A stretch of DNA of 64,000 nucleotides from the IMG/VR virus record IMGVR_UViG_3300025466_000014; one strand, 5' to 3'. Positions within the stretch are counted from its first letter, which is position 1. Each line of letters begins with the position of its first letter. The notes under the pieces were generated by a model that was not told the DNA's origin, did not search any database, and saw only the letters and a program-made list of their open reading frames with translations. Both the position numbers and the translations under genes were made by a program. This DNA is from a virus. Positions 43,656-53,635 of this stretch are shown here, in pieces.

Positions 43656-44501
43656 TTATACCAATGAAGACTCGACTAGTTTACGAAATTGAATCCAGCC
43701 CTTTAGGTTGCCGTGATACTCAGGCTTTTCCCAAACAATCTTGTTACCAAGGTGGACGAAGTCGTCAGGCGTAGCGGCATGTTCGATTGGCGAAGCATGT
43801 AGGGGTTCGCTTCCTACTAAAGCCTTATACAACTGCAAATCTTTTTCCAAGGAAGGGTTTTCACCATCGTGCGTTAGATAAGACACACGAGCGCATCGAG
43901 CACCGGAAATCTTTGGAAGGTCATCTTTAAATATACCTGCCCGCTCTTCCTCGGTAACATACGGCAAGTGCCATTCGCCTTTACGCAGTTTTTTAGGTTT
44001 GGAAAACTGCATTGCTAAAAGCATTTGATTAGCAAGGGCTTCGATTTCGGGCTGAGCATCCGGATGACAACGCAAGCCAAAGAAGTTAGTCCACTCAGTT
44101 GCCGTAACCACTACGCTAATATGCTGAAAGGGTTCAGTAACTCGATTTGCAACTTGTTTATGAAGACCAAGTTTTTGCATCTTCTCAGAAGACTCTACTG
44201 CCAGCTGAGCTGCAGACAACCAGGCGTTTTTTGCCTCAGTCAAAGCATCGCCTGTTAACTGCTCTTTTGCCTGCATACCAGGGCGATTAGCACCCCAATG
44301 AATAGGCATTGCAGGTTCTTTACGAACCATCTCCAACATCTTTGCAACAGGAATTGCGCGGCTGCTACTGGCATTACGGCTAAAAACACGATGAGTCATA
44401 AACTCTGCGTGAATGAACCTTGGGTACATTAGCTGAATTGTTGTAAGACGAATATTTGCGTCAGAGATTGAGTCTTCAATAATTTTTGCAGAAATAGTCA
44501 T
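43656..44501 (-). CDS. thyX: FAD-dependent thymidylate synthase
   Basis: Start MTISAK; YPRFIHAEFMTHRVFSRNASSSRAIP; ARCARVSY; LHASPIEH. Confidence 0.92.
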   Translation of the reverse strand: MTISAKIIEDSISDANIRLTTIQLMYPRFIHAEFMTHRVFSRNASSSRAIPVAKMLEMVRKEPAMPIHWGANRPGMQAKEQLTGDALTEAKNAWLSAAQLAVESSEKMQKLGLHKQVANRVTEPFQHISVVVTATEWTNFFGLRCHPDAQPEIEALANQMLLAMQFSKPKKLRKGEWHLPYVTEEERAGIFKDDLPKISGARCARVSYLTHDGENPSLEKDLQLYKALVGSEPLHASPIEHAATPDDFVHLGNKIVWEKPEYHGNLKGWIQFRKLVESSLV

Positions 44502-44502
44502 G

Positions 44503-44886
44503 TTAAACTTTAAGGTAGGATTGTTCAATGAGGAGTTTTTCGACTTTGACCCAGTCAACGTAAGGGCGGCTGCTATAGGTAAGATTAAAAACTAGGGGTG
44601 TGCCTAAGGCTGCGTCGTCAATGTAGAGGTTAGCGTAACACTTAGGGCTCGATGTCCACGACTTCTGAGTAGGATTACCATTTGCAGCGTAAAAGGGAAT
44701 TTCGTTCTCTTTAAACCAATTCTTGGCTGCTTCCAACTCTTCGCCAGACCGCATAGTCCAGATTATAAGTTGATGACCTGCTGCAACCAGCTTTCGTAAA
44801 ACAGAGGCGGAACCCACAGGTTTGCCTATCCCCGGGTAATCGTGAGTTACGCAAGTACCGTCAAAGTCTATTGCAATTATTGCCAT
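44503..44886 (-). CDS. HAD-superfamily hydrolase (BT0820-like)
   Basis: IIAIDFDGT, LIIWTMR, ANLYIDD. Confidence 0.85.
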   Translation of the reverse strand: MAIIAIDFDGTCVTHDYPGIGKPVGSASVLRKLVAAGHQLIIWTMRSGEELEAAKNWFKENEIPFYAANGNPTQKSWTSSPKCYANLYIDDAALGTPLVFNLTYSSRPYVDWVKVEKLLIEQSYLKV

Positions 44887-45515: not shown

Positions 45516-45974
45516 TTAAAAATCACCGTCAGCAGGCTGATAACAAACTACTCCCAATTCCCGCCACTTTTTGACCATTGAGTTTTGATCTTCAATAACC
45601 ATAAAGATGTCAGAAAAAGGAATACGAGCCTTTATAACCATTTCAGGTTTAAGTTCTATTGTTTTGCGTCTGTCCAATACTGGACGCATTAGCAATTTAT
45701 AAGGCTTTGTGATTACTTTTTCTAATTGCTTTTCGGTGTAGTCTCGAGCCTCCTCGCCGCGAGCCGTAACAAAATAGGTCTTTAGAAAAGGAATACTCAT
45801 TAGCGCATTATAAACTTCCACACCCTGAGGAATGTAGGTGTCATTAACGTGCAAATCATGATAGACGTCCATATTGCCAGACAAAAACGCCCCATCACGA
45901 TGCGCTGAGTTTATTAGGCAGCCATCAATATCTAAAAGCAGATACTTTTGATCAGTTCGATAAAAATTATTCAT
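45516..45974 (-). CDS. HAD phosphatase (PNKP 3'-phosphatase-like)
   Basis: LLDIDGCL, FVTAR, LLMRP..D, VIEDQ..V..WRELG. Confidence 0.85.
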   Translation of the reverse strand: MNNFYRTDQKYLLLDIDGCLINSAHRDGAFLSGNMDVYHDLHVNDTYIPQGVEVYNALMSIPFLKTYFVTARGEEARDYTEKQLEKVITKPYKLLMRPVLDRRKTIELKPEMVIKARIPFSDIFMVIEDQNSMVKKWRELGVVCYQPADGDF

Positions 45975-45982
45975 TTTTAAAT

Positions 45983-46645
45983 TTAGCGGTTAGCAATGGA
46001 CATAAACTCTGCTCGAACCGAAGGTTTCAGGAACGCACCGCCCAGCTTAGAGGTAACCGTAGAAGAACCTACGTCCTTAATGCCCCGCGATTTAACGCAA
46101 TAATGTTCTGCGTCAATCATAACAGCAATGTTTTCTGTATCTAGAATGTAAGATAGCGCATGGTAGATTTGCTCAGTAAGGCGCTCCTGAATTTGAGGAC
46201 GTTTACTAAAAAATTCTACAATACGATTAATCTTAGATAAACCTAATACCCGATTTTTAGGTATGTAGGCAACATTAGCTTTTCCTGAAATGACAACGCC
46301 GTGATGTTCACAGTTGCTTTGCACGTTAATGTTACGCTCAACAAGCATCTCATCGTAGTGCATTTTGTTATCTACTGTCGTACACTTGGGAAAGAAATCG
46401 TAGTTTAGCCCATAGTAGATTTCATTTATGTACATCTTTGCCATTCGATTAGGCGTATCGCGCAAAGAATCGTCAGAAAGGTCCAGACCAACTGTCCGCC
46501 ATACCTCAGTGAAAAGGGTCTCTAGTTCTGCAATCTTATGATGTGCCCCACGCGCAACTGCGGAAGGTACCATGGGTGTTTCAACTTCCATAAGAAGTAG
46601 ATGCTCACCCACTTGCTTACCCAAATCTGGATCGTGTTTTGTCAT
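45983..46645 (-). CDS. folE: GTP cyclohydrolase I
   Basis: LRDTPNRMAKMY, SNCEHH, YIP..VLGLSKINR, RPQIQERLT, HYCVKSRG. Confidence 0.96.
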   Translation of the reverse strand: MTKHDPDLGKQVGEHLLLMEVETPMVPSAVARGAHHKIAELETLFTEVWRTVGLDLSDDSLRDTPNRMAKMYINEIYYGLNYDFFPKCTTVDNKMHYDEMLVERNINVQSNCEHHGVVISGKANVAYIPKNRVLGLSKINRIVEFFSKRPQIQERLTEQIYHALSYILDTENIAVMIDAEHYCVKSRGIKDVGSSTVTSKLGGAFLKPSVRAEFMSIANR

Positions 46646-46654
46646 TTATTACTC

Positions 46655-47497
46655 TTAAGAAGGTTGATAGACAGTAACCGCGTGTTGCTTAGATAACTCA
46701 GCCAGAGCTTTAAGAGGGAAAGTCATGAGGTCAACAGGCGCACCTCGGCCAAAGACAGTATCTACAAAAAGTGCTAGGTTACGTGAATGGAAGCTAGTTA
46801 CGTCGTCAGTGTGACTTAGCAGGCACCACGCGTCAATGTCTGAACCATGCCGCCCTGATTTAACTGCAACAGGAACACTTAGGCTATCAGCTAAAAATTG
46901 CCATTTGGCACTTTCAGCCAGAATTACAGGGTTAGGAGACTGCAAACCTAAAACACCGCGTACCTTTTTAAAGATTTGAGTACGGTCTTCAATGCGCTCA
47001 ATGTTAGGATAATCACCGCTTTGAATAAGATTCATCAGCGTAGCATGAGTGCGCATACGGAAGTCATCTGCGGGACGTTTGCCGTCTTCTTGGTATGGCA
47101 ATGGCGGTAAGTAAAAAACTTTGGTGTAAGTAGTCATCCAAGACTTTACCATTACTCCCAAAGCTTTTACCATCTCACTATCAGGGTGGTCAGTAAGAGC
47201 AATTGCGTACAGGTCAAGAGCAGAGCGGTCTGTAATAACTGTCGTGGCATCGCCTTTAAGCATTGCTTGTACTTCGGCATGAATTAGGTTTGTTATCATG
47301 CCATAGTGAGCAACAGGGTTAACTGGGAAGTGCACATCTGCCCAGGTAATTTTTCGGTCCTGCGAAGAAACAACTTCAGCTAGATGATGATGTTCCGATT
47401 TAAGTCGTCCAGTAACTTCGAGAGCAGTAGTCGTTTTGCCGCTGCAATTTGTTCCAGTAAAAGCAATTTTGTATTCAGAGGATTTAGGTTTAGTCAT
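46655..47497 (-). CDS. AAA_28/NadR-like P-loop kinase fused to a minimal nucleotidyltransferase-like domain
   Basis: AFTGTNCSGKTT, ITDRSALD, Y..VFYLP..YQEDGKR; C-terminal GRHGSDID..VDL. Confidence 0.65.
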   Translation of the reverse strand: MTKPKSSEYKIAFTGTNCSGKTTTALEVTGRLKSEHHHLAEVVSSQDRKITWADVHFPVNPVAHYGMITNLIHAEVQAMLKGDATTVITDRSALDLYAIALTDHPDSEMVKALGVMVKSWMTTYTKVFYLPPLPYQEDGKRPADDFRMRTHATLMNLIQSGDYPNIERIEDRTQIFKKVRGVLGLQSPNPVILAESAKWQFLADSLSVPVAVKSGRHGSDIDAWCLLSHTDDVTSFHSRNLALFVDTVFGRGAPVDLMTFPLKALAELSKQHAVTVYQPS

Positions 47498-47871
47498 GAT
47501 TTGCTGATTTTAGAGGGTTGAGAAGTGCCAATGTTTCGAGCTTTATGCTTTAATTTATCTTTATCGTAAAAGATAAATCCAGGAAAGAATGCCTTTTTAA
47601 GTTTGGCTAAGTCACAAAGCTTGTAACCAGAATGCGGTATCATAACAAGTACCTCTTCTGTTTTAGGCTTAATGCTTGCCTTATTGTAGACGCCGTCTAT
47701 CTTAACTGCGTCTACAATTGGAATACCCACAGCTTTTAGACTAGTAGGTGTGTCGTAAACTTTGCTATTAGAGGGAGCCTTCTCGCGCAACCAAGCGTCT
47801 ACTGTTATGTAGGCGCCTTCTGGCGGTTTGAAAATATAGCCTAGCACCTTGGTTCGTTTAATTGTCTTCAT
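47494..47871 (-). CDS. hypothetical protein in the modification cluster
   Basis: ATGA overlap with the kinase gene. Confidence 0.7.
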   Translation of the reverse strand: MKTIKRTKVLGYIFKPPEGAYITVDAWLREKAPSNSKVYDTPTSLKAVGIPIVDAVKIDGVYNKASIKPKTEEVLVMIPHSGYKLCDLAKLKKAFFPGFIFYDKDKLKHKARNIGTSQPSKISKS

Positions 47872-47873
47872 AT

Positions 47874-49193
47874 TTACAGAAACTTCTTTTTGTGGAAGAC
47901 CTCATAGCGGTGAACGATTTCCTTGTAGTGGTTTAGGCCACCAGGCGGGCGTGTAGGTTTAGAGAAAAGGGAATTAGTTACTTTAGGTTTCCATTCTCTG
48001 TAGCCTTTTGCCATAACAACGTTTAGGTAGTCCACAGCCTTAGCTAAAAGCTCGTAGCGACCACGCGGCATCCATTGGTCAGACAAGTCTCTCAAAGATG
48101 CTCTACCAGCAAGATAGACCTCAACTGAATCAGCTATCATGTTTTTTGTTTCTACAAAATTCCATGAATTGTGGGCTTCAATAAGCCGAGCATCCAAAAA
48201 CAGACGTTGATCAGTTATTGTACGGCAGGTAGGGCATCTGCAAGTAGAACCTACTGGTGTCTTTTGCGTTCTTTTAACGTCGTTAGATCGGGTTGCGTCC
48301 GCGCCTAAACCGTAGCAGTAAGTACCGTTAATAGAGGCCATGCGGTAGCTAACCGAATCTCCACCGCAGCGTTTAACGTAATTTGTACCTGCCATAATAG
48401 CGTACAAGATAACCCAAAAGTTAGACGTAACGCCCAAAAAGTGAAAGTACTCTGTGTTATCTCTAAGACGGTCAATAACCGCTAATCCGTTAGTCAACGC
48501 GGTCATGATTCGATGGTTACTGTCTCCCTCAACCAGCGTATTCAATCCCGCAATTGCAACTACCTTAGAACTGCGCTTAAGCCCGTCAATACGCCTTAAA
48601 CGATTAGCCACACTTGAACCTTGCGATATGAGCGCAAGTATTTTGCCCTCTTCAAGCTTCGGTAGCATGTAGTCATCGTTTGCCCGCATCATCTTTGTCA
48701 CAGCGTCAAAGTAATAGGGCTCTACGTTAGCTGGTAGGGGCAAATCCAGAGGCATACAAATGTCACCGAATTTGTTGTAGAAAGTCAGGAGGTCGTCAGG
48801 GTTAACAAACTCTGTAGTGCCTCGAAGCATCTGAAACCCGCCCGAGTCTACAATTATTTTCTTACCGAAAGGTTTCGCGTTTACATGAAACGTGTTGGTT
48901 GCATGGTAAGGGTTAATAAGCAGAATAGGCTCAGTGGGGCAGTCCAAAGATATAAGTGGTACTACCTGATCAAAGTCCAAATCTCCTAACTGACTAGGCA
49001 GCAACTTATCACGCGAGGTTTTGACCACAATGTAGATTGTGCGGTCAGGTAAATAGACAATTGAAAGGCGCGAGCTGTATCGCTCTAAACCTTGTGGATG
49101 CTTGGGTTTGCCGAATTTAACATAGGCGTGTGTCTCGCAACTATGCCAACTTTCTACCCCAGCTAACACCATGTGTACTCGATTACGTAGCAT
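47874..49193 (-). CDS. dpdA: TGT-fold guanine transglycosylase, DpdA-like
   Basis: VDSGGFQ, PLDLP, SQG, HFLGV, GDSVSY, zinc site CRCPTC..HN; next to folE/queD/queE. Confidence 0.8.
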   Translation of the reverse strand: MLRNRVHMVLAGVESWHSCETHAYVKFGKPKHPQGLERYSSRLSIVYLPDRTIYIVVKTSRDKLLPSQLGDLDFDQVVPLISLDCPTEPILLINPYHATNTFHVNAKPFGKKIIVDSGGFQMLRGTTEFVNPDDLLTFYNKFGDICMPLDLPLPANVEPYYFDAVTKMMRANDDYMLPKLEEGKILALISQGSSVANRLRRIDGLKRSSKVVAIAGLNTLVEGDSNHRIMTALTNGLAVIDRLRDNTEYFHFLGVTSNFWVILYAIMAGTNYVKRCGGDSVSYRMASINGTYCYGLGADATRSNDVKRTQKTPVGSTCRCPTCRTITDQRLFLDARLIEAHNSWNFVETKNMIADSVEVYLAGRASLRDLSDQWMPRGRYELLAKAVDYLNVVMAKGYREWKPKVTNSLFSKPTRPPGGLNHYKEIVHRYEVFHKKKFL

Positions 49194-50304
49194 GAATTTC
49201 TCGAATCATTTGCTGCATTGGTTGCTTTAGGTAAGGCGCTGCGTAGAGATACGGTGCCGCAAAGTCTGGGTATTCCATAAGGTATTCCAGTTTTTCAAGA
49301 GCGTTTTCGTTAGTAAACAGAAACCGTTTGTCATATTGCATTAGTTCTTCATGAGAAGACTCTCCGCACAGTAGTAGGGGTTGGCATCGGTAGATAGCCG
49401 CTTCCATTAGAGCATAACCAAAATTCTCTTCCGGAGAGTGAGATACCATAACCATTGACTCTGCAAGATATTTATGGTACTCTTTTTTAGATATGCCACT
49501 CTTAATTTCTAGTACGCCTTGTGATTCCAGTAATCGGGCGTATTCAACTAGAGAAGGATCGTTACTGCGAAACTCTTTTCTTCCAGTTGTAATCAAGAAA
49601 GTCCAATCAGGATGTACGTCTTTAGCCCACATAAAGAGGTCTAGGGTAGCTCTAGGGTTTTTCTCTGAGTCAAAACGGTTAGTAAGAAGTATCTGTTTCT
49701 TCTTAGAAACTTTATAATTTGGATAATACTTCTTAAACATTGGGTTACCGGTAACCACAAGTTTTTTGCAAATCTCGTTAAAAGTTTGGTCAGACTTTAT
49801 AAGTGACCCTCGCCGTGCAATGATTGCTTTACGATGATAGTGTGAACCTACAAAGACCTTATCAAAAGCGGCAAACCAGCCTAGCTCCGTATACTGCTGA
49901 TAAGGTGCCGCGATTTCAAAAGCATCGCCGCGTGTGTAGGATGCTGCATGTAAAAATCCAAATAGTTTAACTTCTACTTTATTCATCTGCGCCATTAGCC
50001 TAACAGACTCGACGCCCCAGAATTCAATGTCACTAAAGAAAATCACTGTACCTGATTGAACACTACCCGAATCGAAAAGAGCAGCCAACTGCATTAGTTG
50101 GCTGCACTTGTAATGTATAGTAGAGTTAATGTCTAAGAATGCACCTACATTAATGGTATTGTCTTGTAGGGGCTTACCGTCAATAACGGTAACGTCAAAA
50201 CCACCCCTTTTAAATTCTACAGGAAATTGCTCATACCACTGTTCCGTATAACGCTCTGTAAGAGGTTCAATTGGAATAAGAAGCATTGGCACGTTTTTAG
50301 GCAT
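49183..50304 (-). CDS. GT-B fold (GT4-like) glycosyltransferase
   Basis: Start MPKNVP; LLTNRFDSEKN, EENFGYALMEA (E-x7-E motif). Confidence 0.82.
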   Translation of the reverse strand: MPKNVPMLLIPIEPLTERYTEQWYEQFPVEFKRGGFDVTVIDGKPLQDNTINVGAFLDINSTIHYKCSQLMQLAALFDSGSVQSGTVIFFSDIEFWGVESVRLMAQMNKVEVKLFGFLHAASYTRGDAFEIAAPYQQYTELGWFAAFDKVFVGSHYHRKAIIARRGSLIKSDQTFNEICKKLVVTGNPMFKKYYPNYKVSKKKQILLTNRFDSEKNPRATLDLFMWAKDVHPDWTFLITTGRKEFRSNDPSLVEYARLLESQGVLEIKSGISKKEYHKYLAESMVMVSHSPEENFGYALMEAAIYRCQPLLLCGESSHEELMQYDKRFLFTNENALEKLEYLMEYPDFAAPYLYAAPYLKQPMQQMIREIHAT

Positions 50305-50713
50305 AAATATCCAGGTCGTTGTTAAAATCAGAAGGTTCGGTGCAAACTGCTGCACCCATAGGGAAGACGAATACGTTGCGATCTTCTTCAAACTTGAGTT
50401 GATCAGTGTTTTTCATAAAACACAAGTCTGAGTATTTAGGATTACGCACCATCAAGGTTATGTTGTTTGGACGCGCCGGGCACCGTTGCGCAACTGTTAC
50501 CTCGATAGTTATTAAAGTACTGGGAAACGTATCGGCTAAAACTTTGTAGTCTAAAGTGTTCTGTTCGTCGCTAACGTAGAGATGACTAACCAAATGTTTT
50601 TTAAGGGCACTGTAGACCGTCTGTACGCCGTTACCGTCTCTTAGGGCATTAGCATCACAAAAAATAGTAGGTACGCCTTTAAGCCTACCCTCTGCCTCAA
50701 TTCCGTATTTCAT
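50297..50713 (-). CDS. hypothetical protein in the modification cluster
   Basis: Overlaps both neighbours. Confidence 0.7.
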   Translation of the reverse strand: MKYGIEAEGRLKGVPTIFCDANALRDGNGVQTVYSALKKHLVSHLYVSDEQNTLDYKVLADTFPSTLITIEVTVAQRCPARPNNITLMVRNPKYSDLCFMKNTDQLKFEEDRNVFVFPMGAAVCTEPSDFNNDLDIYA

Positions 50714-51384
50714 GCTGAATATTCCTTTCCTTTAAATTCTACCTTAAAGGGCATGTTGTTAGTCTTTATTAGATGGTCTAGCAAATTTTCTAGACTTAGC
50801 CATACGCCAGTGACAAGTTTGTCGCAGGTAACTTTAGCAGTGCTTAACTCCGTTTCAAGCTTACCGTAAACAGTATAGTTGGTATGAACCTCAACATTGT
50901 AGACAGTGCTGACTTGAATGTCCGAATCAACTATGTTTTCAAACAGGTAATAGCTTGCGTTGTTTTCCCAAAGAGCTTTTTGCGATGGATACAGGTTGTT
51001 AAGAGCTTGATATTTTTTAATGTGGTCTTTTTCGGATAAGACTACACGATTTCGACAGGCTTCTAGGTCAACTGAGTAATATTTAATGTCGCTACTAAAG
51101 CTACGGTAATGCCTATTTATAGTTTTGTGGTGCTCGTGATTGTCTTTAATTGACGGAAGAAGTATTTTCTTTCCCCAGACAAGAGAAGTCTTAAGGGGAG
51201 AAAAGAGTTCTTGAAAGTGTGCATTAAAGCCAAAATACTCGGCAGCCTTTAAAGCTTCGCGTTTACGCTCGTCATTTAAATCAAAAAAGTAGAGCACGTC
51301 TGATACTTTACCAGCATTTAGCAGAGACCAGCATCCAATAATTTCGTCGTCAGCATGAGGAGCAAATATGATAGTGTTTTTCAC
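50710..51384 (-). CDS. PIG-L/LmbE-family N-acetylglucosamine deacetylase
   Basis: IIFAPHADDEIIGC; DNHEHH; K..AL..YPSQ. Confidence 0.85.
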   Translation of the reverse strand: MKNTIIFAPHADDEIIGCWSLLNAGKVSDVLYFFDLNDERKREALKAAEYFGFNAHFQELFSPLKTSLVWGKKILLPSIKDNHEHHKTINRHYRSFSSDIKYYSVDLEACRNRVVLSEKDHIKKYQALNNLYPSQKALWENNASYYLFENIVDSDIQVSTVYNVEVHTNYTVYGKLETELSTAKVTCDKLVTGVWLSLENLLDHLIKTNNMPFKVEFKGKEYSA

Positions 51385-51400
51385 AGACGTGCCTCTAAAT

Positions 51401-51976
51401 TTAAATCAAACTAAGAAGTTTTGTTTCTTCTACGTACTCTAGACTGAAGGGCAGATGATTCTTGTAAATACACGCCCATACGTCCGAGTCTGACCAGTCG
51501 AAAAAGGGGAAAACAAACGTCATACCGAACATAGAGTTCGGTTCAATAAGATTCATGTCCACGCGAGATACGTGCAGCCCATTGCGAACAAAATTAGCGG
51601 AGCGATCCAGCCTAGTATACTCGGAGCGACGTGAACCGTCAAACTGTGTCTTGTATTTGGGATTGTTACCCAAAGCACGAGGCCAGTAGGTAATAGGAAA
51701 CGGGCGTTGGTAAAGAAATTCCAGCGTATCAGGATGAATTGCGTTGTCGCCGCCCGGCTTAGAAGTATGAATAATGTCAACTTCATTTAGTTGCGTAATA
51801 ATAGACTTGGAAAGCAACCATTGATTAACTACCGAATCTTTACCACCAGAGTGACCTGCACAGGCAGGATACTCAATCTTATCCACAAGACTATCTAGAC
51901 GTTCTAGAGTAAATTGGACTTTTTCGTCAATTCCCAAAAGAGCAGAACGAATGGAGCTTACTGTTAATTCGGACAT
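51401..51976 (-). CDS. PAPS-reductase-family PP-loop adenine nucleotide hydrolase
   Basis: HSGGKDS, DGSRRSE, FPFFDWSDSDVW; no C-terminal ECG redox motif. Confidence 0.8.
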   Translation of the reverse strand: MSELTVSSIRSALLGIDEKVQFTLERLDSLVDKIEYPACAGHSGGKDSVVNQWLLSKSIITQLNEVDIIHTSKPGGDNAIHPDTLEFLYQRPFPITYWPRALGNNPKYKTQFDGSRRSEYTRLDRSANFVRNGLHVSRVDMNLIEPNSMFGMTFVFPFFDWSDSDVWACIYKNHLPFSLEYVEETKLLSLI

Positions 51977-51985
51977 ATATAACCT

Positions 51986-52339
51986 TTAATTAGAGATTAC
52001 GGCACCGCACTCGCCGTCTTCAGACACTTCAATTTCCAAGGTACGGCCTGGATACTTTTCAATAAGAATGTCCATTAGTTCCTCAGCTAGCATCTCACAA
52101 GACTTGTAATCGAGTTCTAGGGTGCCAGCTGAATACTGAGAAGTACAAAAGTTTAAAAACTGATGGAATTCAATTTCGCGGTCATCATGATAAACGTTAA
52201 CCGAAACGCGAAACTTAAAAAGGTGCCTATGAGGACTTTTAAGATAGGCGACATCTTCAGGAGCATTTGGGTAGCAGTGAATTCCAGGCAACGCAAAGGT
52301 TACCCAGATTTTACGTTGAACAAGAAGGTTGTTTTTCAT
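51986..52339 (-). CDS. QueD-fold paralog (candidate DpdL-like)
   Basis: IWVTF..GIHCYP..HRHLFKFRV..DREIEF..SCEMLAE..VSEDGE; T-fold pattern without CxxxHGH. Confidence 0.65.
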   Translation of the reverse strand: MKNNLLVQRKIWVTFALPGIHCYPNAPEDVAYLKSPHRHLFKFRVSVNVYHDDREIEFHQFLNFCTSQYSAGTLELDYKSCEMLAEELMDILIEKYPGRTLEIEVSEDGECGAVISN

Positions 52340-52341
52340 TA

Positions 52342-52352
52342 TATTTACGGTT
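52342..52352 (-). promoter_or_regulatory. putative phage promoter AACCGTAAATA
   Basis: Motif variant between the queE stop and the next ATG. Confidence 0.4.
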
Positions 52353-53155
52353 TAAGGGATTGCAGTAAACAGATGACCCTGCAAGGACAGAAGGAGGTTG
52401 TGCTTCATTGCGTAAGCCGCAGCATAAGCGTAATTCTTAGCAGTTTTCTCTTTGTTAATTAGTGTGTCATCCCAGATAGACGAAACCTCGCCTTCATAGG
52501 GTCGCAGATACTCTGCCATAGGGCTAACATAAACTGCACACCACTCTTCAGTGCCTCTAGAAAGCGCAAGTGCCCATTCCGGTATTTCGTGGTGGTTACC
52601 TTCTTCTGCAGATACCACAAATTTTAAAACGTCTGTGTAGGCTCTAACTATTGGAGACAACGGCATGTAGCCTTTAGGACTTGCCTTAGGACTGCATACT
52701 ACAAAGAAATTAAACTCTTGTGCGTACTGACCTTCGTATGCTGCAAAAAATGCAGCCTGTGTTCCGTTTGTTTCCAGTTGAACAACTGTACTTCGGTTAG
52801 CTTTTATCTTTTTAATAACCTCTAAAAGATAATGCTGCAACGTAGGTTCGCCGCCAGTAAAAACAATAATGTCAGTGGGGCGCCAGCCTTGGTTACGCAT
52901 TTCTAAAAGCAATTCGTCGGCGGTATAATGTTTTGCTTCCTCAATTCCGAAGAAGGTGTCGCAGAATCGGCAATGGGAATCCTTGGCGCCAAAGTTGCAA
53001 CCAGCCAAACGTATAAACATCGCAGGATGACCTGTGTAGGGACCCTCACTTTGAATAGTGCGAAAAATAGAAGTAACGTAAAGTTTTTTTGCGTCTTTAA
53101 AGTAAGTAGAGTTAACTGGAATATCTCGATGCATTGTTACAATTTTTGAAGTCAT
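52352..53155 (-). CDS. queE: 7-carboxy-7-deazaguanine synthase (radical SAM)
   Basis: IFRTIQSEG..G..FIRLAGCN..CRFCDT (widened cysteine spacing), FTGGEP, ETNG, VCSPK, LSLQGH. Confidence 0.93.
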   Translation of the reverse strand: MTSKIVTMHRDIPVNSTYFKDAKKLYVTSIFRTIQSEGPYTGHPAMFIRLAGCNFGAKDSHCRFCDTFFGIEEAKHYTADELLLEMRNQGWRPTDIIVFTGGEPTLQHYLLEVIKKIKANRSTVVQLETNGTQAAFFAAYEGQYAQEFNFFVVCSPKASPKGYMPLSPIVRAYTDVLKFVVSAEEGNHHEIPEWALALSRGTEEWCAVYVSPMAEYLRPYEGEVSSIWDDTLINKEKTAKNYAYAAAYAMKHNLLLSLQGHLFTAIP

Positions 53156-53158
53156 TTT

Positions 53159-53635
53159 TTACTCCCAGAGTTTTGCGTCTTCGCGATGACCAACCACCAT
53201 TGCCATGTTGTTGTCTGTTTCACGGACTTCAACACGAGAACACCAAACGCGTTCTGCCTCGCCGTTACCAAAGGAGGGCAAGAAAATTGTGTTAATGTAC
53301 TCGTACAAAAAGGATGCGATGCCTTCGCATCCAGTTTTTTCTACTTCAGTAATTTTGGCTAAACCGAGTTTACCTAGATTTAAAAGCGCCTCACGCTGAG
53401 GGTCGTCTGCCGCAACTAGGAGTGTATGGTCAAACCACTCCTCTAATTTGTCTTTGAGTGGCCGTAGTCCGCCGAAGTCCAGAACCCAATTGCGAGCATC
53501 TAGAGTATCCGCCTCAAATTCAAAATAAAAGGATAGTGCGTAACCATGGATTTTATTACAGTGCGAATTGGCACGCCATTGCCGATAAGCGACAGGCGCT
53601 ATCTGCTTGTAGGTTTTTGTAGAAATGAATTTCAT
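53159..53635 (-). CDS. queD: 6-carboxy-5,6,7,8-tetrahydropterin synthase
   Basis: CNKIHGY, WVLDFGGL, FDHTLL, TGCE, VEVRET. Confidence 0.92.
   Translation of the reverse strand: MKFISTKTYKQIAPVAYRQWRANSHCNKIHGYALSFYFEFEADTLDARNWVLDFGGLRPLKDKLEEWFDHTLLVAADDPQREALLNLGKLGLAKITEVEKTGCEGIASFLYEYINTIFLPSFGNGEAERVWCSRVEVRETDNNMAMVVGHREDAKLWE

Follow-up and report, generated by a model that had tools for sequence, protein, structure and literature searches.

The subject of this study is a run of 12 minus-strand genes (positions 45516-53635) in a 64,000-nucleotide stretch of viral DNA, the IMG/VR virus record IMGVR_UViG_3300025466_000014, which in its full length is referred to as the window. The run is uninterrupted, and as neighboring genes are either 2-16 nt apart or share 4-11 nt, we regard it as one operon. 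On balance, we assign it to a jumbo phage related to Burkholderia phage BCSR5, read it as a DpdL-type 7-deazaguanine operon with a built-in bacillithiol-like pair of sugar enzymes, and predict that the DNA of this phage probably carries a 7-deazaguanine bearing an amino sugar. The core of the operon is a known DpdL-type system; the BshA/BshB-like pair, a glycosyltransferase and an LmbE/PIG-L-fold protein, together with an optional step by a PP-loop enzyme, is a widespread variant without a published explanation. An earlier analysis of the nucleotide sequence (the original prediction) had listed eleven of the 12 genes. Their coordinates and strand agree with ours in all cases, and family searches, motifs, and fold models support the assigned contents (Table 1).

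As judged from the alignment with its relatives, the glycosyltransferase most likely starts at the ATG at position 50286 and not at the TTG at position 50391 chosen originally. Its AlphaFold model showed a GT-B (two-Rossmann) fold with a predicted local distance difference test (pLDDT) score of 92.6, and the best Foldseek matches were glycogen synthase, MshA, and BshA (E=1e-11 for these three), GlgM, and the O-GlcNAc transferase GtfA. The EX7E motif is located in the C-terminal half of the protein, where E286 is invariant within EENFGYALMEA. Across 54 sequences, 11 residues were invariant. In the N-terminal (acceptor) half, 8 residues were invariant across all three gene contexts described below at identities of 17-50%, which suggests that these glycosyltransferases share an acceptor, the simplest candidate being the deazaguanine core. 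Several other assignments were rejected. A relationship to GTDC1/QTMAN, the eukaryotic queuosine mannosyltransferase, was ruled out by the lack of a DUF3524 match even at E≤10, and T4 AGT and BGT were ruled out as structural neighbors by their absence from the top 50 Foldseek matches. An action on hydroxymethyl-pyrimidines was ruled out as well: no ThyA-family gene was found in the phages BCSR5, BUDD, and ACP17 or within the window, whose own enzyme is of the ThyX type.

In the LmbE-like protein, residues H10, D12, D13, H83, and H86 (APHxDDE...HxxH) were invariant in 52 sequences. Its AlphaFold model had a pLDDT of 84 overall and of >90 over residues ~1-155, which comprise the catalytic domain; the tail was poorly modeled. 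BshB was the first Foldseek match, and the top 12 matches were all LmbE-fold proteins (E=1.7e-5 to 7e-4). The top matches included TT1542, BC1534, GalB, and diacetylchitobiose deacetylases, and in a profile search of the PDB both LmbE motifs aligned to diacetylchitobiose deacetylases. As exemplified by GalB, the LmbE fold also supports other chemistry (hydration). Since MshA/BshA and BshB rank among the best structural matches, the analogy to mycothiol and bacillithiol synthesis drawn in the original prediction holds at the fold level. Eight contigs of two lineages contain a single open reading frame (ORF) that encodes the LmbE domain together with a complete DpdL domain and in which the HxDDE, HxxH, and HRHxF motifs are intact (Table 1). 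These genuine fusion proteins, and not profile drift, explain why the iterated LmbE hidden Markov model (HMM) matched DpdL. As far as can be judged from the sequences, the LmbE-DpdL fusion is the strongest single indication that the putative deacetylase serves the deazaguanine pathway and not an unrelated substrate.

The same genes are found together in other phages. In the Burkholderia jumbo phage BCSR5 every gene of the run is present (33-63% identity), and in the unrelated T4-like Xanthomonas phages BUDD and X1 the order is FolE, PP-loop protein, LmbE, hypothetical protein, glycosyltransferase, TGT, DpdL, and QueE. The glycosyltransferase gene directly adjoins dpdL in ACP17, Sinorhizobium phage Phosso, the PA5oct group, and Synechococcus phage BUCT-ZZ01. 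All 18 cultured-phage records having a glycosyltransferase homolog also contained a DpdL homolog. The distance between the two genes was at most ~2.5 kb in the five records inspected (BCSR5, BUDD, ACP17, Phosso, and PA5oct) and, according to match coordinates, at most 1.5 kb in X1 and BUCT-ZZ01. The 15- to 21-kb stretches inspected around the glycosyltransferase and DpdL genes of ACP17 and PA5oct yielded no LmbE gene, and Cellulophaga phage phiST has neither a glycosyltransferase nor an LmbE gene. Cultured phages consequently form a graded series, with the full set in BCSR5, BUDD, and X1, glycosyltransferase plus DpdL in ACP17 and PA5oct, and none of the sugar genes in phiST.

A profile scan of IMG/VR with the glycosyltransferase yielded 72 distinct contigs, whose neighboring genes were scored by local iterated HMMs. 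The glycosyltransferase and LmbE genes were both present in 68 contigs, at most 1.5 kb apart in 64 of these. Of 46 contigs, 35 had the glycosyltransferase gene no more than 200 bp from dpdA, and at least one deazaguanine gene was present within 9 kb of it in 66 of the 72. The original prediction had proposed a survey of gene neighborhoods, and in BCSR5, BUDD, X1, and these 66 contigs glycosyltransferase and LmbE indeed accompany dpdA or que genes. Three contexts could be distinguished: DpdL without QueC (16 contigs, 12 of them also with the PP-loop gene and the small hypothetical gene), a QueC homolog, in many cases accompanied by additional genes for radical-SAM proteins and short-chain dehydrogenases (32 contigs), and a QueE-like gene only (24 contigs). 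The DpdA proteins accompanying the sugar pair belong to at least four clades, which are barely alignable with one another. The three contexts and the multiple DpdA clades argue that the pair is a mobile add-on, neither a peculiarity of one lineage nor tied to the lack of QueC.

Some loci of this survey have additional features (locus numbers beginning with L are used where loci must be told apart). The QueC class (L006:6826-10004 and ~30 related IMG/VR loci) contains, in this order, genes for FolE, a short-chain dehydrogenase, a 341-aa radical-SAM protein, a short QueC (182 aa), a conserved 141-aa hypothetical protein, a 189-aa radical-SAM protein, LmbE, glycosyltransferase, and DpdA, and its tailoring set is richer than that of the window. 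A tblastn search with a QueC-class glycosyltransferase found no cultured phage of this class. L061, a complete 312-kb IMG/VR genome with terminal repeats, and L009 contain LmbE, the glycosyltransferase, and a QueE-like gene and no Pfam-detectable FolE or TGT; in this class the genes adjoin that of a family-B DNA polymerase carrying a fused uracil-DNA glycosylase domain. L009 differs in that its LmbE and glycosyltransferase genes flank a cytidylyltransferase-like gene and that a weak ThyA-like gene is located in the vicinity. In the case of L029, which contains the PP-loop gene, LmbE, the small hypothetical gene, and the glycosyltransferase, no que or dpdA gene was found within 9 kb. Two genes after its glycosyltransferase lies a gene of the CmcI/rhamnosyl O-methyltransferase family (L029:10565-11308), and a CmcI-type sugar O-methyltransferase beside the module fits real sugar chemistry. 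In some DpdL-class clusters a second, longer (~450 aa) glycosyltransferase-like gene is present (L019:5969-7333, L021:7186-8577, L024:5955-7313, and L091:4001-5344, the last in BUCT-ZZ01). BUCT-ZZ01 furthermore has an annotated xanthine-guanine phosphoribosyltransferase amid its que genes, a hint of a nucleotide-level route.

The protein originally described as a QueD paralog is related to QueD (hhalign probability 80%) and can now be assigned to DpdL on the basis of its LKSPHRHLF motif, which fits the published signature LxxxHRHxF, and of 62.5% identity to ACP17 DpdL; the identity to phiST DpdL is 29%. DpdL, a predicted decarboxylase of 7-carboxy-7-deazaguanine (CDG) that was modeled as acting on the free base, is defined by having LxxxHRHxF where QueD has the motif CxxxHGH and was found in phages with FolE, QueD, QueE, and a DpdA but without QueC (Cui, Hutinet et al., NAR 2023, PMC10516641). 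The type case is phiST, in which all dG is replaced by 2'-deoxy-7-deazaguanosine (dDG) (PMC10516641). As stated in the original prediction, the window lacks QueC: a phage QueC HMM and tblastn with two QueC queries gave no match in any of its six frames. The Pfam QueC model (PF06508) also found no QueC in the complete genomes of ACP17 and of BCSR5, the closest cultured relative (in the latter at E≤0.1), and the same search was positive in Motura, a syntenic relative possessing QueC. Since the DpdL-type dDG pathway known from phiST runs without QueC, this lack is accounted for. It belongs to an already known system and is not the mark of novelty that it had been taken for; moreover, the same sugar pair also occurs in QueC-bearing clusters. 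In Achromobacter phage Motura (L002:7022-10326), QueC and an asparagine-synthetase-like gene replace the genes for DpdL, PP-loop protein, LmbE, hypothetical protein, and glycosyltransferase at a position syntenic with the window, i.e., the tailoring cassette beside dpdA was swapped within one phage lineage.

The PP-loop protein was correctly placed in the 3'-phosphoadenosine-5'-phosphosulfate (PAPS) reductase family by the original prediction. In 16 aligned sequences, the motifs SGGKDS, QIDGxR, and DWSDxDVW were invariant or nearly so, and no cysteine was conserved. PF01507 scored 19.3 bits with the window protein, below the cut-off of 22.5, and is precomputed on most of 53 relatives. True PAPS/APS reductases have a catalytic C-terminal cysteine, and DndC has Fe-S cysteines. 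The lack of a conserved cysteine suggests that the protein is an ATP pyrophosphatase or adenylyltransferase and not a reductase. A divergent QueC was ruled out, as there was no QueC match in Pfam or NCBIfam and hhalign against phage QueC gave a probability of only 61%; judged by these comparisons, the protein is kin to QueC at the superfamily level only. The PP-loop gene was present in 15 of the 72 IMG/VR contigs bearing the glycosyltransferase and is hence optional. The small hypothetical protein unk138 is encoded in 19 loci, and with a single exception these also contain the PP-loop gene. It had no family match, and a language-model and structure look-up in the ESM Atlas was uninformative. 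In ACP17, the hypothetical gene just upstream of dpdA (L004:8227-8712) is a weak unk138 homolog (E=9.5e-5), and unk138 may be more widespread than the PP-loop gene. Homology of unk138 to the 141-aa hypothetical protein of the QueC class, or of either protein to the T-fold, was ruled out (hhalign ≤1.5%).

These genes can be arranged in a plausible pathway. According to the established functions of their families, FolE, QueD, and QueE would convert GTP to CDG, from which DpdL, as predicted in the literature, would strip the carboxyl group to give 7-deazaguanine. The TGT-fold DpdA, again according to the established family function, would exchange guanine in DNA for the deazaguanine base. We propose that the glycosyltransferase would put an N-acetyl-hexosamine, most likely N-acetylglucosamine (GlcNAc) from UDP-GlcNAc, on the deazaguanine and that the LmbE-fold enzyme would then deacetylate it. 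The synthesis of mycothiol, bacillithiol, and glycosylphosphatidylinositol anchors follows the same two-step logic, with a GT4 enzyme acting first and an LmbE enzyme second. The PP-loop enzyme with its small partner may contribute an optional ATP-using step, probably the derivatization of the freed amine or the activation of a co-substrate; given its family, sulfate activation is one possibility.

As for the order of events, we lean towards tailoring of the free base before its insertion by DpdA. The median isoelectric points (pI) of the glycosyltransferase, LmbE, DpdL, and PP-loop families are 5.7-6.5, similar to those of FolE, QueD, and QueE, and that of DpdA is 9.1. The acidic to neutral pI of the tailoring families and the fusion of LmbE to DpdL, which was modeled on the free base, weakly favor this order. 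HuiG, a GT4-type enzyme of huimycin synthesis, transfers GlcNAc onto the 2-amino group of free 7-deazaguanine (PMC7439116; bioRxiv 10.64898/2026.04.15.718813). Such an N2 attachment appears unlikely for a fully substituted genome, because the sugar would sit in the minor groove, and by inference only we lean towards attachment on the C7 (major-groove) side. In its most detailed form, the proposal would be that phages of at least three lineages replace guanine by a 7-deazaguanine with a de-N-acetylated amino sugar on the major-groove side, as a C-glycoside at C7 or via the C7 carboxyl group, and that in the PP-loop subset the sugar amine is N-acylated or N-sulfated at the expense of ATP, comparable to the N-deacetylation/N-sulfation of heparan sulfate. 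This version is tentative and rather doubtful.

Several points weigh against an amino-sugar-bearing 7-deazaguanine in DNA. Since phiST makes plain dDG without the sugar genes, these are dispensable for dDG, and their target is deduced from linkage only. As the pair also occurs with QueC or with QueE alone, the acceptor is not specific to decarboxylated deazaguanine. 7-Deazaguanine has no obvious O-nucleophile, so that a C-, N-, or amide linkage must be invoked, and the pI argument for the free base is a weak one. The glycosyltransferase of the window scored 25.2-25.5 bits with PF00534 (Glycos_transf_1; cut-off 26.4), a model that matched six of seven members of its family at E≤10, and the LmbE-like protein had no Pfam match, PF02585 included, at E≤0.01. 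Finally, the decarboxylase activity of DpdL is only predicted, and ACP17 DpdL plus DpdA formed no dDG in Escherichia coli (PMC10516641), a result for which the sugar module may account.

Other explanations were considered. In an amide model that goes back to a possibility raised in the original prediction, CDG would be kept, a PP-loop enzyme would adenylate its carboxyl group, and the sugar amine would attack to form 7-(N-glucosaminyl)carboxamido-7-deazaguanine, comparable to the MshC and BshC reactions; DpdL would then bind CDG without decarboxylating it. This amide would extend the resemblance of the glycosyltransferase and LmbE to MshA/BshA and BshB, and a precedent exists in the QueC-like RoyL amide synthetases, which couple adenylated CDG to amines in roseomycin-type natural-product pathways. 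It is kept alive particularly in the QueC class, where the short (182 aa) QueC homolog is encoded two genes upstream of LmbE. Each class has a HUP-type enzyme using a nucleotide alpha-phosphate near the pair (of the PAPS-reductase, QueC, or cytidylyltransferase type), and QueE, the CDG synthase, is the deazaguanine gene most widely common to the three classes. The LmbE-DpdL fusion, too, would set the freed amine beside the CDG-binding T-fold domain. Nevertheless, a CDG-amino sugar amide is made less likely by DpdL, which probably removes the carboxyl group and whose homologs at 29% identity go with plain dDG in phiST. The PP-loop gene, present in only 15 of 72 contigs, is absent from many loci with glycosyltransferase, LmbE, and DpdL (L030-L033) as well as from ACP17 and PA5oct, and the known members of the PAPS-reductase family adenylylate sulfate or phosphate or perform redox or DNA-sulfur chemistry and do not act on carboxylates. 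The amide would also leave the glycosyltransferase's own acceptor unexplained. We consider it improbable.

The DNA might also contain plain 7-deazaguanine as in phiST, with the sugar and PP-loop enzymes making a free, huimycin-like glycosylated deazapurine or holding the base transiently in a protected or soluble form. HuiG-type transfer of GlcNAc to the free base is known, the tailoring enzymes share the acidic pI of the small-molecule enzymes of the pathway, and DpdL, the fusion partner of LmbE, is predicted to act on the free base. Moreover, plain 7-deazaguanine was reported for a Vibrio phage in which G is fully replaced, a comparison by DNA chemistry alone. A free product is difficult to reconcile with the position of the glycosyltransferase gene directly beside dpdA in most loci and of the module in replication-gene blocks of lytic phages; the loci inspected have no transporter or regulator typical of metabolite clusters, and a benefit of a secreted nucleoside analogue for the phage is not evident. 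We therefore regard it as unlikely. We assign an equally low probability to the idea that the glycosyltransferase and LmbE act elsewhere, be it on a different base of the DNA, on a protein of phage or host, or on an envelope sugar, and are merely physically linked to que and dpdA. The usual substrates of GT4 and LmbE enzymes are lipids, small molecules, or proteins, six of the 72 contigs had no deazaguanine gene within 9 kb, and the complete 312-kb genome has the pair in the absence of a Pfam-detectable FolE or TGT. However, a QueE-like gene encoding the N-terminal motif of QueE is present in that genome and its relatives, the linkage is maintained in three pathway classes and with DpdA proteins of at least four clades, LmbE is fused in frame to DpdL, and BCSR5, BUDD, and ACP17 have no ThyA-type hydroxymethylase.

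The operon can be compared with several known systems. With the dDG systems of phiST and ACP17 it shares FolE, QueD, QueE, the LxxxHRHxF-type QueD paralog, and a TGT-fold transglycosylase; no QueC was found within the 64 kb of the window. phiST differs in having no glycosyltransferase, LmbE, or PP-loop gene and a DpdA of 259 aa instead of 439 aa. In ACP17, where the dDG system is predicted, a glycosyltransferase gene lies beside dpdA and dpdL and is not discussed in the original publication (PMC10516641). The bacillithiol and mycothiol enzymes BshA/BshB and MshA/MshB have the same two folds as an obligate gene pair and the same EX7E and AHPDDE/HxxH-type motifs, but show only 12-20% identity to the phage enzymes, which are encoded in a DNA-modification operon. 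Neither malate nor inositol phosphate is the acceptor of the phage pair. Instead of a BshC/MshC-type ligase, the phage operon contains the optional PAPS-reductase-type PP-loop enzyme. The huimycin/dapiramicin cluster also combines FolE, QueD, and QueE with a GT4-type UDP-GlcNAc glycosyltransferase acting on a deazaguanine (PMC7439116; bioRxiv 10.64898/2026.04.15.718813). In contrast to the phage operon, the huimycin genes belong to a metabolite cluster of an actinomycete, in which QueC and an O-methyltransferase are present and DpdA and a deacetylase are absent, and the product is free; HuiG and the phage glycosyltransferase are likened by enzyme type and described reaction, not by sequence. 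In T-even phages, a GT-B enzyme (AGT, BGT) likewise attaches a sugar to a non-canonical base, 5-hydroxymethylcytosine, presumably against restriction. The base is a different one, however, T4 has no deacetylation step, and a hydroxymethylase is missing in BCSR5, BUDD, and ACP17.

To our knowledge, all known sugar-bearing DNA bases are pyrimidines (glucosyl-5-hydroxymethylcytosine, base J, and arabinosyl or other hexosyl derivatives of 5-hydroxymethylcytosine and 5-hydroxymethyluracil), and we know of no deazaguanine DNA base with other than small C7 groups. A literature search covering glycosylated deazaguanine in phage DNA, DpdA3, DpdL, and the cultured phages found no description of the sugar module, and no paper on a glycosylated deazaguanine in DNA, in line with the original prediction. 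PA5oct was reported to contain a modified G whose identity was not assigned (PMC12191111). A jumbo-phage survey (Iyer et al.) notes deazaguanine systems in Motura and PA5oct, and LmbE, PIG-L, and PAPS reductase did not turn up in a search of its text for these terms. If our interpretation is correct, a sugar-bearing 7-deazaguanine would represent a new class of DNA hypermodification. In the most detailed form of the proposal, it would be the first sugar-bearing purine in any DNA, and possibly a nucleobase would for the first time be C-glycosylated by an enzyme of a DNA pathway. A sugar-bearing 7-deazaguanine would probably alter recognition by END nucleases and the recently described glycosylases specific for deazaguanine, as well as by restriction enzymes and CRISPR nucleases. 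With the graded series of cultured phages at hand, the prediction is already open to a test by mass spectrometry.

Table 1. Genes of the 12-gene run in the window and LmbE-DpdL fusion ORFs of other loci
Feature	Coordinates	Strand	Supporting evidence
QueD (6-carboxy-tetrahydropterin synthase), 158 aa	53159..53635	-	PF01242 E=1.4e-16; phrog_2389 QueD-like E=5.7e-41
QueE (7-carboxy-7-deazaguanine synthase, radical SAM), 267 aa	52352..53155	-	PF04055 E=1.6e-10; phrog_2076 QueE-like E=2.9e-35
DpdL-type QueD paralog (predicted CDG decarboxylase), 117 aa	51986..52339	-	LKSPHRHLF motif
PAPS-reductase/FAD-synthetase-type PP-loop ATP pyrophosphatase, 191 aa	51401..51976	-	SGGKDS, QIDGxR, DWSDxDVW
LmbE/PIG-L-fold metal hydrolase (predicted sugar de-N-acetylase), 224 aa	50710..51384	-	APHADDE motif; AlphaFold/Foldseek
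unk138, conserved, acidic, 138 aa	50297..50713	-	No family match; partner of PP-loop gene
GT4-type retaining GT-B glycosyltransferase, 367 aa from ATG 50286	49183..50286	-	EX7E motif; model fold
TGT-fold DNA transglycosylase (DpdA family), 439 aa, pI 9.2	47874..49193	-	PF01702 29.8 bits (cut-off 26.3); DSGGFQ
unk125, basic, 125 aa, pI 9.8	47494..47871	-	No family match; 3' of dpdA
AAA_28 P-loop kinase-like domain plus C-terminal ~100 aa, 280 aa	46655..47497	-	PF13521 E=8.2e-10; phrog 'thymidylate kinase' E=8.7e-12
FolE (GTP cyclohydrolase I), 220 aa	45983..46645	-	PF01227 E=4.4e-56
PNKP-type HAD phosphatase, 152 aa	45516..45974	-	PF25109 E=8.2e-13
LmbE-DpdL fusion ORF	L017:7639-8550
LmbE-DpdL fusion ORF	L018:7729-8568
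LmbE-DpdL fusion ORF	L021:6336-7229
LmbE-DpdL fusion ORF	L023:7779-8573
LmbE-DpdL fusion ORF	L027:7743-8603
LmbE-DpdL fusion ORF	L030:1457-2287
LmbE-DpdL fusion ORF	L031:221-1048
LmbE-DpdL fusion ORF	L032:5408-6238

For the remaining genes of the operon, comparison with the related phages gave the following results. QueD is 73% identical to QueD of ACP17, and the best five NCBIfam matches of QueE were all QueE models, each under its cut-off. DpdA shows 36% identity to the homolog of BCSR5 and 25% to that of Motura, and BLAST sets it with these two and apart from the ACP17/BUDD clade. unk125, whose family has a median pI of 10.0, immediately follows dpdA also in BCSR5, L005, and five further loci and is a possible DNA-binding partner of DpdA. 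In the case of the protein described as a kinase-nucleotidyltransferase fusion in the original prediction, only the kinase-like half is supported, by PF13521 and by structure neighbors, which are AAA_28 proteins over residues 3-186; the identity to the BCSR5 homolog is 54%. For the nucleotidyltransferase half, there were a GSDID motif and weak language-model feature neighbors (kinase plus NTP_transf_2 proteins at 0.84-0.85), so that the C-terminal domain may be a minimal nucleotidyltransferase, as a lead only. Homologs of the PNKP-type phosphatase follow FolE in BCSR5, L005, and five further loci, and by this gene order the phosphatase is the twelfth gene of the conserved run.

Megablast of the region against cultured phages gave no match. 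The operon is flanked by a primase gene upstream and by a gene for a ThyX-type (flavin-dependent) thymidylate synthase downstream (43656-44558, minus strand, 300 aa), and the latter gene is kept in BCSR5.

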